From sequence record MW630116.1: 64,000 bases of DNA; one strand, written 5' to 3'. Below are positions 35,081-53,785 of the stretch, piece after piece. A program made the position numbers and the translations under genes. The first letter of the stretch is position 1; each line of letters opens with the position of its first letter. The notes beneath the pieces are model-generated. The model was not told the DNA's origin, did not search any database, and saw only the letters and a list, made by a program, of their open reading frames with translations. Source of the DNA: Escherichia phage vB_EcoM-ZQ3.

Positions 35081-35766
<686 letters not shown>

Positions 35767-37961: not shown

Positions 37962-38036
37962 GGCCCTGTAGCTCAATGGGAGAGCTGTCAGCTCATAACT
38001 GATAGGTAGCTGGATCGAAACCAGCCAGGGTCACCA
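37962..38036 (+). tRNA. tRNA, anticodon CAT (Met or Ile2/lysidine)
   Basis: hand-folded cloverleaf: acceptor GGCCCTG/CAGGGTC, D stem GCTC/GAGC, anticodon loop CTCATAA, T arm GCTGG-ATCGAAA-CCAGC, encoded CCA. Confidence 0.8.
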
Positions 38037-38042
38037 AACAAA

Positions 38043-38114
38043 TGGTGCATCGTATAAAGGTTATTACGGGGAGCTGTTAACTCCTTTATCTTGGTTCGAG
38101 TCCAAGTGCGCCAG
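38043..38114 (+). tRNA. tRNA-Asn (anticodon GTT)
   Basis: acceptor TGGTGCA/TGCGCCA, anticodon stem GGGAG/CTCCT loop CTGTTAA, T arm CTTGG-TTCGAGT-CCAAG; D stem only 3 bp; no encoded CCA. Confidence 0.65.
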
Positions 38115-38188
38115 TAATTTAAACGAAGTAAATTAAGTGCTCTATCCAAATAATAAATACTCCTATATTTTATAGGAGATAATTGGTA

Positions 38189-38854
38189 ATGAGCATTTGT
38201 AAACATTGTAATATGGAATTTGATATTTCTAATAAACCTAAAGGATGGATGGCTAACCACACTAGATGGTGTAAATCCAACCCTAAATTGGAATTGTATA
38301 AAGAAAGTTCTAAATCAGCCATTGCAGCAATGAATAAAGCACGTATAGCTTCAGGTAATTTAAACCAGTATGTTGTATCTAAAAAGACTGGTGTCCCTGT
38401 AGTAATTTCGGAAGAGACTAGACAAAAATTGTCAGCCGCTTCATTAGGTAGAGAACACTCTGAGGAATCTAGAATAAAAATATCTAATGCTCGGAAAAAA
38501 TGGTTGAATGAAAACCCTGATAAACATCCTTGGAAGAAAAATACAAAATTTAAATCTGTGCCTTGTGAATTTTTGAAATCTAAATTAATAGAAAACGGAA
38601 TTTCATTTATTGAAGAATACCAACCGGTTAAAAACCGAGCGTATTGCACGGATATTGCTTTAATAGATAAAAAGATTATTATTGAAGTTAATGGAAACCA
38701 ACATTACTCCAATCCTAAGAAAAAGATTTTGGCCCCTTATTATAAAGAACGCCATGATATTATAAAATCATTAGGATGGGAAATATATGAACTTCATTAT
38801 GCTGAAGTTTATAAAGAAGATATTGTAAATAATTTAATTGCCTCTATAGTGTAA
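38189..38854 (+). CDS. putative homing endonuclease (Zn-finger / NUMOD3-like / C-terminal Vsr-DUF559-like nuclease domain)
   Basis: 222 aa from MSICKHC; CxxC...H..C N-terminus, NUMOD3-like ETRQKLSAASLGREHSEESRIKISNARKKW, C-terminal IIEVNGNQHY...D...GWEIYEL; located in tRNA cluster like T4 segB. Confidence 0.6.
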   Translation: MSICKHCNMEFDISNKPKGWMANHTRWCKSNPKLELYKESSKSAIAAMNKARIASGNLNQYVVSKKTGVPVVISEETRQKLSAASLGREHSEESRIKISNARKKWLNENPDKHPWKKNTKFKSVPCEFLKSKLIENGISFIEEYQPVKNRAYCTDIALIDKKIIIEVNGNQHYSNPKKKILAPYYKERHDIIKSLGWEIYELHYAEVYKEDIVNNLIASIV

Positions 38855-38915
38855 TGGATAGCATATAATCGTTCTAAGGTTAATGGTGAGAGTTCAAATC
38901 TTTCTAGAGGCACCA
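38840..38915 (+). tRNA. tRNA-Arg (anticodon TCT)
   Basis: acceptor GCCTCTA/TAGAGGC, anticodon stem TAATC/GGTTA loop GTTCTAA, T arm GAGAG-TTCAAAT-CTTTC, encoded CCA; overlaps last 15 nt of upstream ORF. Confidence 0.8.
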
Positions 38916-52229: not shown

Positions 52230-52772
52230 ATGAGAAAAGCACTACTCGCTGGTCTATTTGCTCTTTCATTATCAGCACATAGCTCCGAGCATACTTTTAG
52301 TAATGTCCAACTCGATAACTTGAATTATGCTTATCAGTTTGGGGAACAGTTTTCTAAGGACGGAAAATTTAAAACGCATGAAAATATGCATAAGAAAGGA
52401 CTTGGATACATAATGGCCGCAATACTATGGCAGGAATCATCTGCTGGTATTAATCTTAAAGATAAGAAAGGTCACCATGCGTATGGAATGTTCCAAAATT
52501 ATCTACCAACAATGAGGGCAAGAATTAACCAGCTTGGTTATAATATGTCTGATGCCCAAATTAAGAAAATGCTATCTAAGCGGTCTAATTCAGCCAGATG
52601 GGCTTATATCGAATTTTCTTATTGGTTAAATATACATAACGGGGATATAAGAAAAGCTATATCCTCATATAATGCGGGATGGAAGACAAGTGCTGGAAGT
52701 AAATATGCTTCTGAAGTCCTAGAAAAGGCTAATTACCTTAAATCAAATAAACTACTGGAAATAAAAGAATGA
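52230..52772 (+). CDS. secreted lytic transglycosylase-like protein (SLT domain)
   Basis: 180 aa; signal peptide; SLT motifs ILWQESS, YGMFQ, SYNAGW. Confidence 0.6.
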   Translation: MRKALLAGLFALSLSAHSSEHTFSNVQLDNLNYAYQFGEQFSKDGKFKTHENMHKKGLGYIMAAILWQESSAGINLKDKKGHHAYGMFQNYLPTMRARINQLGYNMSDAQIKKMLSKRSNSARWAYIEFSYWLNIHNGDIRKAISSYNAGWKTSAGSKYASEVLEKANYLKSNKLLEIKE

Positions 52773-53116
52773 CCAAAATGTTGGCTTTAATAGTTGGCTT
52801 GGTTTCATTTAACGCTCTTGCTAATACTACATATACTGATGTAACGGAGTATACAAACAGAACAGCGTCTGATTATTGTGGTAAAAGTCAAGAGTGTAAA
52901 GTAGATTTTTCACAAAAATTGTTATATGCGTATAAAGACGGAGAAAAAGATGGGGCGTCTAGTAGGTTCAAGGCGTCTACCTTAATTAAAAGATACTATA
53001 AAAAATGGCAAATATTAGAATGCTCGGTGGCGGAACCTAAAGATAAGGCAGCATGCAATTCTATGGTGGACCGTCTAGTTGACTCTTATACTAGAGGACT
53101 TGCAGCAAGTGATTAA
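52769..53116 (+). CDS. secreted protein
   Basis: 115 aa; signal peptide MTKMLALIVGLVSFNALA; four Cys. Confidence 0.5.
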   Translation: MTKMLALIVGLVSFNALANTTYTDVTEYTNRTASDYCGKSQECKVDFSQKLLYAYKDGEKDGASSRFKASTLIKRYYKKWQILECSVAEPKDKAACNSMVDRLVDSYTRGLAASD

Positions 53117-53576
53117 AAACTATATCAAGGGCGATATTGTCGCCCTGTTTTCTAAAGGTAATAATATTGCTCATGGGTGTAATTGTTTTCATACAATGGG
53201 CGCCGGTGTGGCAGGACAATTAGCAAAGGCTTATCCAAAAATTCTAGAAGCCGATAAACTTCAAACCGAATTCGGAGACGAGTCTAAACTCGGGACTTAT
53301 TCGGTTTATGAAAAATATTTTAAGACCCACAAAGCTTATTGCTTTAATCTTTATACGCAGTTTGAGCCGGGACCTAATTTTGAGTACTCTGCTTTAATGA
53401 ATTGTATAATAGAATTAAATAAATTCGGAAAGAATAAGATAACAAAGCCTGTAATTTATATGCCAAGAATTGGTGCAGGTATCGGTGGTGGAAACTGGGA
53501 CGTCATCGAAGAGATTTTAGATACGTATTCCACTAAACTAGAAATTGTGATTGTTGATTGGGAACCATTATTATGA
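53109..53576 (+). CDS. macro domain protein (ADP-ribose binding/hydrolase fold)
   Basis: about 155 aa, GTG start inferred from RBS spacing; motifs IAHGCNC..MGAGVAGQL and PRIGAGIGGG match macro-domain signatures. Confidence 0.7.
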   Translation: MIKNYIKGDIVALFSKGNNIAHGCNCFHTMGAGVAGQLAKAYPKILEADKLQTEFGDESKLGTYSVYEKYFKTHKAYCFNLYTQFEPGPNFEYSALMNCIIELNKFGKNKITKPVIYMPRIGAGIGGGNWDVIEEILDTYSTKLEIVIVDWEPLL

Positions 53577-53785
53577 ATATACATTATCCACATCCATATG
53601 ACCCAAAGAATAAGGCAGTAATTATTCGTCAATGGGAACGCATTTGTCGTACCAAATGTCCAATTAATAGTCCACATGATGTAGATAAAGACTACATCGG
53701 AACATTCGTTGAATATACTTTTATCGATAAGAAAGGCCGTAAACAACATGTAGAAGAATATTGCTTAAAGGTGACATGGTTATGA
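53573..53785 (+). CDS. hypothetical protein
   Basis: 70 aa from MNIHYPH; ATGA overlap; Cys/His-rich. Confidence 0.45.
   Translation: MNIHYPHPYDPKNKAVIIRQWERICRTKCPINSPHDVDKDYIGTFVEYTFIDKKGRKQHVEEYCLKVTWL

Follow-up and report, generated by a model that had tools for sequence, protein, structure and literature searches.

The macrodomain gene and its neighbours

The window (64,000 nucleotides of DNA from Escherichia phage vB_EcoM-ZQ3, sequence record MW630116.1) was confirmed to be that of a Mosigvirus, an RB69-like T-even phage: the 2.6 kb around the gene studied here share 98.8% identity with Escherichia phage vB_EcoM_SQ17 and 97-98% with HX01, moskry and further genomes of this RB69-like genus. 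This gene, which encodes a macrodomain protein, lies in a series ordered regB, vs.1, vs, macrodomain gene, tk.3, tk.2, tk.1, tk, rI.1 and rI. The order regB-vs.1-vs-tk.4-tk.3-tk.2-tk.1-tk is common to the window, T4 and the annotation of the Mosigvirus moskry. In T4 the gene between vs and tk.3 is annotated as "Tk.4 conserved hypothetical protein", and its product is identical to the window protein at 129 of 155 residues (83%; 94% positives; E=1e-103) without a single gap. Given this gapless identity and the position between vs and tk.3, the macrodomain gene and T4 tk.4 are the same gene. T4 tk.4 was named adfM, for anti-DarT factor Macrodomain, in a preprint of November 2025 (bioRxiv 10.1101/2025.11.20.689424). 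The features of the locus are collected in Table 1.

Table 1. Positions in the window of the macrodomain gene, its neighbours, and the motifs and signals within it
Feature	Position	Strand	Basis and remarks
vs (valyl-tRNA synthetase modifier), upstream neighbour	52769..53116	+	ORF list, annotation of relatives
Shine-Dalgarno-like GAGGA	53094..53098	+	Sequence; 10 nt before GTG, spacing equal in T4
Macrodomain gene, orthologue of T4 tk.4 (adfM)	53109..53576	+	155 aa, 17.4 kDa, GTG start, TGA stop
Terminator-like hairpin	53128..53156	+	Scan match; 8-bp stem AGGGCGAT/GTCGCCCT and T-rich tail
Loop 1 of the ADP-ribose site, H22-G23-C24-N25-C26-F-H-T-M-G31-A-G33	53172..53207	+	Alignments, conservation
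N80-L-Y82-T83-Q84 motif	53346..53360	+	hhalign to TARG1, DarG and SCO6735; conservation
Loop 2, glycine-rich, phosphate-binding, P119-R-I-G-A-G-I-G126-G-G-N-W130	53463..53498	+	Alignments, conservation
Promoter-like site, TTGTGA-18-TATTAT	53545..53574	+	Consensus scan, 9/12 matches; upstream of tk.3
tk.3, downstream neighbour	53573..53785	+	ATG overlaps macrodomain stop (ATGA)

The mechanical list of open reading frames opens the macrodomain frame earlier, at TTG 53079. GTG 53109 is the better start because it lines up, base by base, with the T4 tk.4 ATG, because GAGGA is found at the same distance upstream in the window phage and in T4, and because a 468-nt CDS is annotated there in the records of T4 and of related Mosigvirus phages; on the same three grounds, the start chosen in the first-pass annotation was borne out. 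The start codons themselves differ, being GTG in the window gene and ATG in T4 tk.4. The TGA stop is at 53574-53576 on the + strand, in the list of frames as in the sequence itself. The GTG overlaps the stop codon of vs (GTGATTAA), and start/stop overlaps of this kind, found at both ends of the macrodomain gene, are how the translation of early genes is usually coupled in T-even phages. Compared with T4 tk.4, the gene differs at 21 first, 9 second and 64 third codon positions; of the codon changes, 49 are synonymous and 27 non-synonymous. Since the differences fall mostly in the third position, the macrodomain reading frame is under purifying selection.

A conserved hairpin and a promoter-like site within the gene

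The terminator-like hairpin falls within codons 7-16 of the macrodomain gene, with a predicted RNA folding energy of -13.3 kcal/mol (z=-2.8). T4 and Yersinia phage fPS-2 carry these 29 nt unchanged, the fPS-2 protein being only 58.7% identical to that of the window, and the fPS-2 record has a "terminator" annotated at this position. Across genera, the hairpin is nucleotide-identical in Tequatrovirus and Mosigvirus, the stem-loop is identical in Dhakavirus, and the structure is lost in Karamvirus and in one Klebsiella phage. No covariation was found among the sequences that keep the hairpin, so that a functional RNA or DNA element is here inseparable from codon coincidence. It is possible that the hairpin is an attenuator after vs, and AdfM expression might be gated by this conserved element in the first 50 nt of its own gene.

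The promoter-like site corresponds to the last 30 nt of the macrodomain gene, and fPS-2 has a "predicted early promoter" at the equivalent place. The consensus scan gave no enrichment of such sites over shuffled sequences.

Domain assignment and fold

The first-pass annotation had placed a macro-domain protein at 53109-53576 on the basis of two motif strings, IAHGCNCFHTMGAGVAGQLAKAY and YMPRIGAGIGGGNW, both of which are present in the 155-aa ORF product. Pfam PF01661 (Macro) matches the protein with 28.6 bits (E=1.5e-6) over profile positions 2-117 of 118, above the gathering cut-off of 22 bits, and PHROG 335, which carries the label "phosphatase", matches with E=1e-66. The profile of the family aligned to TARG1, DarG and SCO6735 with hhalign probabilities of 98.2-98.4%.

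An AlphaFold2 model, built with 69 homologues as input, has alternating strands and helices (pLDDT 95.8, pTM 0.91). Searched with Foldseek against the PDB, this model matched TARG1, Poa1p, DarG and BT1257 with a probability of 1.00; the E-values were 3e-10 for TARG1, 1e-9 for Poa1p, 8e-8 for TaqDarG, 2e-7 for MtbDarG and 1.5e-6 for SCO6735, and the best TM-score belonged to Poa1p (TMq 0.80). Coronavirus and alphavirus macrodomains gave far weaker fold matches in the same search. The nearest solved proteins by sequence are BT1257, yeast Poa1p, SCO6735, TARG1 and the DarG macrodomains. Fold and sequence neighbours therefore place the window protein in the ALC1/TARG1-like class of macrodomains, and the predicted structure has the three-layer alpha/beta macro fold with its two glycine-rich ADP-ribose-binding loops, whose stretches G31-A-G33 and G122-x-G124-I-G-G-G128 are conserved. 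Taken together, the profile and fold matches lie far above what chance would give. The Pfam score, the confidence of the model and the fold matches bear out the original call, confirming that the gene at 53109-53576 is real and codes for a single macrodomain.

Active-site residues define a Gln-type macrodomain

Conservation was counted over 69 aligned homologues of the window protein, with identities down to about 36%. Invariant throughout are C26, G33, A35, D49, L61, G62, N80, Y82, T83 and Q84, along with P119, I121, G122, G124 and W130 in the loop-2 region; H22, G23, N25, G31, G128 and a few others are nearly invariant. In alignments with characterized macrodomains, N25 corresponds to N22 of DarG, N23 of the PhiKZ AdfM and N27 of SCO6735, G23 to V25 of SCO6735, and G126 to the positions of D125 in TARG1 and F152 in Poa1p. 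By hhalign, Q84 sits at the catalytic Lys of TARG1 (K84; the TARG1 sequence was checked against PDB 2lgr) and of DarG (K80), and at Gln85 of SCO6735.

The correspondence with SCO6735 (hhalign probability 98.4%) extends through the site: H22-G23-C24-N25 is aligned with H24-V25-C26-N27, N80...Q84 with N81...Q85, and PRIGAGIGGGNW with PRIGCGLAGGTW. In a profile alignment, BT1257 carries NMIGQ, with Gln in the Q84 column, which overturned the impression from a gapless phmmer alignment that BT1257 is without this Gln. From the SCO6735 and BT1257 alignments, the window protein thus holds a Gln-type catalytic constellation.

SCO6735, a stand-alone macrodomain of Streptomyces coelicolor, is efficient at removing thymidine-linked ADP-ribose from DNA modified by DarT; its Q85A and Q85E mutants are inactive, N27S is nearly inactive and G128E is impaired, and in the mechanism proposed for it Asn27 locks Gln85, which positions the distal ribose, while a backbone-held water starts catalysis (PMC9411070). 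The first-pass annotation had made its hydrolase proposal hinge on the catalytic residues: the Lys of DarG and TARG1 is gone, but the SCO6735-type Gln is there. Because SCO6735 needs the equivalent Gln, the absence of Lys does not refute a hydrolase. We likewise rejected the idea that the missing Lys marks an inactive, binding-only macrodomain, given the SCO6735 precedent, where hydrolysis of thymidine-ADP-ribose depends on the Gln at this position.

Distribution and origin

Proteins of the window type were found by tblastn in 2,798 of 50,697 phage records, including T4-like phages, Vequintavirus, Ackermannviridae-like phages and phages of Klebsiella, Vibrio, Acinetobacter and Pseudomonas. The PhiKZ/DarG type is present in 276 phage records, mainly those of jumbo phages. 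In a scan of bacteria with one genome per species, at least 393 loci encode relatives of the window protein. Among the best 80 of these 393, most are about 150 aa long, the YTQ motif is kept in 79, and the neighbours are variable housekeeping genes. The families listed for the 78 same-strand adjacent ORFs include Exo_endo_phos (7), PALP (6), EamA (6) and NADAR (5), with 2 of the 5 NADAR neighbours also matching the T4 gp30.3 family. DarT is absent from the 25 most frequent neighbour families listed for these 80 loci and 78 ORFs. A toxin partner beside the bacterial homologues was accordingly rejected as a recurrent arrangement, within the loci and families listed.

With housekeeping neighbours and no DarT among those listed, the clade of the window protein does not form a family of antitoxins. 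T-even AdfM has the look of a stand-alone hydrolase that was recruited, unlike AdfN, which is antitoxin-like in the literature. We tentatively raise the possibility, to which we give rather less than even weight, that T-even AdfM did not come from DarG and is an independent recruitment of a widespread Gln-type housekeeping macrodomain, in which case phage anti-DarT2 activity arose at least twice, as a Lys-type in PhiKZ-like phages and as a Gln-type in T4-like phages. The substrate range of Gln-type AdfM might also be broader, taking in uracil-linked RNA ADP-ribose and protein esters, and these proteins might have a non-catalytic DarT-binding mode as well.

A predicted role in counter-defence against DarTG2

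DarTG is a common anti-phage defence, and T-even phages are widely used as models and are candidates for therapy. When a library of T4 transposon mutants was grown on DarTG2-expressing E. coli, tk.4 was, according to the preprint that named adfM, the sole significant hit; a clean tk.4 knockout made T4 more sensitive to DarTG2, and AdfM was proposed to strip ADP-ribose from DNA on the basis of its structural similarity to M. tuberculosis DarG (bioRxiv 10.1101/2025.11.20.689424). The evidence that T4 tk.4 acts against DarTG2 is genetic and comes from this preprint, in whose text neither a complementation nor a catalytic mutant is described. An earlier study had found that T4 without adfA and the NADAR gene adfN (30.3) is still DarTG2-resistant, and a further factor was therefore implied (PMC11825919). 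The Tk.4 protein of T2 has been seen by proteomics.

Biochemical precedent is provided by PhiKZ gp104, to which a Cell Reports paper of 2026 independently gave the name AdfM: in vitro it frees DarT2-modified ssDNA of the ADP-ribose on the second T of TNTC, an activity lowered by the N23A substitution (PMC13309987); removal of DarT2 marks by this protein establishes that a macrodomain can work as a counter-defence strategy in phages. TARG1 and DarG, which have in common the catalytic lysine replaced by Q84 in the window protein, both reverse thymidine-linked ADP-ribosylation (PMC8883491).

The following pathway is proposed. In single-stranded phage DNA, DarT2 modifies the thymine of TNTC motifs with ADP-ribose, which blocks replication. 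The window gene, as we interpret it, supplies a stand-alone single macrodomain from the non-essential regB-vs-tk block of T-even phages, and its product most likely neutralises the host DarTG2 toxin-antitoxin defence. ADP-ribose would be held in a cleft between loop 1 (H22...N25...G31-A-G33) and loop 2 (G122-A-G-I-G-G-G128), and the macrodomain would then cut the ribose-thymine bond, so that ADP-ribose is set free and the DNA repaired. The predicted catalysis is lysine-independent, of the SCO6735 type, as opposed to the Lys-dependent route of DarG and TARG1: Q84, held by N25, would position the distal ribose and an oxocarbenium-like transition state, and an ordered water would do the chemistry.

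Building on the observed ORF, fold, orthology to T4 tk.4 and conserved residues, we consider it probable that the window gene, the Mosigvirus tk.4/adfM orthologue, encodes a hydrolytic anti-DarTG2 macrodomain that uses the Gln route. By orthology, the window allele should have a T4-like anti-DarTG2 phenotype; by analogy of its active site, it would hydrolyse thymidine-linked ADP-ribose in a reaction that depends on the Gln. The suggestion, made from the sequence at the outset, of a counter-defence hydrolase directed against DarTG is supported by the published genetics of the 83%-identical T4 orthologue, that is, through orthology to a published anti-DarTG2 factor. Since T4 tk.4 has been published in this role, the main idea of the first-pass annotation is correct and already in the literature. 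What is added here, namely the Lys-to-Gln replacement and the sharing of the AdfM name by two kinds of protein, is useful annotation and not discovery.

Two predictions follow. As the window gene is an AdfM orthologue, RB69-like phages are predicted to be DarTG2-resistant. Furthermore, with no Lys in the T-even AdfM clade, a "catalytic lysine" mutant is impossible, and by analogy with SCO6735 the informative positions are Q84 and N25.

Alternative functions

The window protein could instead be a hydrolase of a small-molecule ADP-ribose derivative, with the DarTG2 phenotype being secondary; candidate activities are those of a Poa1p-like ADP-ribose-1''-phosphate phosphatase, an O-acetyl-ADP-ribose deacetylase or a degrader of an ADP-ribose-based immune signal. 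Database labels point this way ("phosphatase" for PHROG 335, "O-acetyl-ADP-ribose deacetylase" among JGI names), but such names were carried over from remote homologues. By TM-score (0.80) Poa1p fits the model best, its sequence matches with E=9e-9, and its His23, replaced in the H23A mutant of PDB 6lfs, matches the nearly invariant H22; however, in the phmmer alignment it has Ser-Ser where the window family has the invariant T83-Q84, and Phe152 in place of Gly126. Iyer et al. hold that phage macrodomains mostly act on ADP-ribose derivatives of low molecular weight (PMC9503650), and the bacterial homologues are found in housekeeping contexts, sometimes beside a NADAR gene. Against this stands the sole phenotype recorded for T4 tk.4, which is specific to DarTG2, a system acting on DNA. 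On balance we find a purely small-molecule function unlikely, and the two activities, on small molecules and in DNA de-ADP-ribosylation, are not mutually exclusive.

Protection might also be non-catalytic, with the protein binding and inhibiting DarT2 or shielding modified DNA. Catalytically dead SCO6735 Q85A inhibits DarT in vitro, more so than dead DarG or TARG1, and DarG also neutralises DarT by binding (PMC9411070). The invariant and nearly invariant residues of the window family nonetheless cluster in the ADP-ribose site (H22, N25, G31, G33, T83, Q84 and G122-G128). These active-site residues are kept in bacteria without an adjacent darT, which argues for selection on catalysis and not on a toxin interface. 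Moreover, the protein, at 155 aa, is without a second, DarT-binding domain, and we regard protection by binding as very improbable.

The other use suggested in the first-pass annotation, a tuning of the phage's own ADP-ribosylation, would mean that the protein adjusts or undoes the marks placed on host proteins or RNA by Alt, ModA and ModB. It gains something from the fact that T-even phages encode ADP-ribosyltransferases alongside this macrodomain, but Alt, ModA and ModB are arginine-specific, and the ALC1/TARG1-like class is not known to cleave arginine linkages. TARG1-like enzymes do act on some protein and RNA substrates, but the linkages documented for ALC1/TARG1-like macrodomains are Glu/Asp esters, thymine and uracil bases and phosphate ends, not Arg (PMC9411070). 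With the family spread over 2,798 phage records of many genera and at least 393 bacterial loci, in which no transferase recurs as a partner, standing alone in bacteria and in non-T-even phages, and with the sole tk.4 fitness effect described in the preprint text being specific to a DarTG2 host (bioRxiv 10.1101/2025.11.20.689424), this suggestion found no support and is the least credible of the readings considered.

Comparison with known macrodomains

The probable Gln-route, anti-DarTG2 hydrolase of the window has its closest counterpart in T4 Tk.4, from a sister genus, which is likewise 155 aa long, is flanked by the same genes and shares the active-site residues, T83-Q84 among them. The two differ by 26 substitutions, one of which falls at the TARG1 D125 position, with G126 in the window protein and K126 in T4.

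Outside the phages, SCO6735 of Streptomyces coelicolor (PDB 5e3b) and BT1257 of Bacteroides (PDB 2fg1/2afc) resemble the window protein in that each is a single macrodomain standing alone and has Gln where others have the catalytic Lys, and all three have in common the motifs H-x-C-N and PRIG-x-G-[IL]-x-GG-x-W. They differ in sequence, with identities of about 22-27%, and in setting, the one being a phage gene and the others chromosomal bacterial genes. SCO6735 also has a basic mobile loop, longer by 5 residues and containing Lys89, which it uses for DNA substrates and which the window protein is without; hhalign places a 5-residue gap opposite SCO6735 "HGMKTGSKGA". The absence of this DNA loop and an identity to SCO6735 of about 22% are observations that count against the proposed function. 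In charge, the window protein is mildly acidic (computed pI 6.3), as against a pI of 9.7 for SCO6735 and 5.05 for PhiKZ gp104; since gp104 is active on DNA at its pI of 5.05, the charge of the window protein is not decisive.

Among the eukaryotic relatives, the K84/D125 dyad of human TARG1/OARD1 becomes Q84/G126 in the window protein by hhalign. Being without both the Lys of DarG and TARG1 and the Asp125 of TARG1 is likewise an observation against the proposed function. Poa1p, aligned by phmmer, has F152 at G126 and no TQ motif; of its residues His23, Ser30 and Phe152, mutated in PDB 6lfs, 6lft and 6lfu, the first is kept as H22, the second is conservatively replaced by T29, and the third is lost at G126.

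The DarG macrodomain (PDB 5m31, 5m3i, 7omu) is similar to the window protein in fold, class and loop-1 Asn, and it reverses the very modification that T4 Tk.4 counters genetically. It has the catalytic Lys80, whereas the window protein has the invariant Q84 in that hhalign column. DarG models are the only NCBIfam and PADLOC matches of the window protein, and these cover the macro part alone: the NCBIfam DarG equivalog NF048014 matches with 31.9 bits over profile positions 4-146 of 338, with a curated cut-off of 250 bits, and the PADLOC model matches with 33 bits over positions 4-145 of 329. A C-terminal DarT-binding domain and an adjacent darT were looked for and are absent, the 155-aa protein being a single domain with vs and tk.3 as neighbours. 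With a score far below the cut-off, no Lys, no C-terminal domain and no darT neighbour, membership in DarG was ruled out.

PhiKZ gp104, also called AdfM, is like the window protein a stand-alone phage macrodomain, counters DarTG2 as the window protein is predicted to do, and shares its name with the AdfM of T4; it is imported into the phage nucleus (PMC13309987). It is DarG-like, with E=9e-25 to Mtb DarG and an FPTK motif bearing the catalytic lysine, and its BLASTP match to the window protein is marginal (E=6e-4 over 23 aa). By these sequence comparisons, the PhiKZ AdfM and the T-even AdfM belong to different clades, the former Lys-type and the latter Gln-type. Two unrelated macrodomain clades thus both go by the name AdfM, which matters for the annotation of these genes.

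Genetic context of the macrodomain gene

The macrodomain gene, orthologue of T4 tk.4, is translationally coupled to vs, the gene for the valyl-tRNA synthetase modifier, which lies immediately upstream. A terminator-like hairpin is found shortly 3' of the end of vs, within codons 7-16 of the macrodomain gene. T4 and Yersinia phage fPS-2 both share, nucleotide for nucleotide, the window's 29-nt block containing this hairpin, despite the fact that the fPS-2 protein shows only 58.7% identity, and the fPS-2 record carries a "terminator" annotation at the same position. Sequence comparison showed that the hairpin is absent from Karamvirus and from one Klebsiella phage, and that one Vequintavirus has another hairpin, of 6 bp, at the equivalent codons. 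The hairpin could serve to attenuate read-through from vs into tk.4; alternatively, it could be a chance product of the G-D...V-A codons.

The final 30 nt of the macrodomain gene hold a promoter-like site upstream of tk.3, the counterpart of which is recorded as a "predicted early promoter" in fPS-2. Promoter-like sites in the region around the macrodomain gene were not enriched relative to shuffled sequences.

GenBank records disagree on the annotation of the block around vs.1. The vs.1 orthologue, which has a hydrophobic, signal-peptide-like N-terminus, is annotated as a lytic transglycosylase in one related record and mislabelled as the RegB endoribonuclease in another. According to a recent preprint, vs showed the strongest depletion among T4 genes in minimal medium (bioRxiv 10.1101/2025.11.20.689424).

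Features of the window discussed in this section
Feature	Window position	Strand	Remarks
151-aa ORF	35311-35766	+	PHROG 755 ("RNA ligase") match, E=2e-65
Three tRNA genes	37962-38915	+	Met-CAT, Asn-GTT, Arg-TCT
vs.1 orthologue	52230-52772	+	180 aa
vs	52769-53116	+	valyl-tRNA synthetase modifier; upstream gene
Terminator-like hairpin	53128-53156	+	AGGGCGAT-ATT-GTCGCCCT, then GTTTTCT
Promoter-like site	53545-53574	+	TTGTGA-18-TATTAT; consensus match only

A possible second anti-defence enzyme

Its size and the gene order in T4 make the 151-aa ORF a candidate orthologue of T4 57B/Acb1. If so, the window would encode at least two anti-defence enzymes, Acb1 of T4 being described in the preprint as an anti-CBASS factor (bioRxiv 10.1101/2025.11.20.689424).

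Relation to known macrodomain systems

The name AdfM has been given to two unrelated macrodomain clades: T4 Tk.4, which is Gln-type and has solely genetic support, and PhiKZ gp104, which is DarG-like and Lys-type and is supported by biochemistry. Transferring annotation between these clades would mislead.

Among the 78 same-strand ORFs adjoining bacterial homologues at the best 80 of at least 393 loci, seven encode an Exo_endo_phos nuclease/phosphatase, a frequent downstream neighbour in Rhodobacterales, and five encode a NADAR domain (bacterial loci L032, L038, L069, L081 and one more). In two of these five there is also a match to Pfam Phage_30_3, to which T4 AdfN belongs. Chromosomal pairing of macrodomain and NADAR genes in these bacteria mirrors T4, where AdfM and AdfN are both present.
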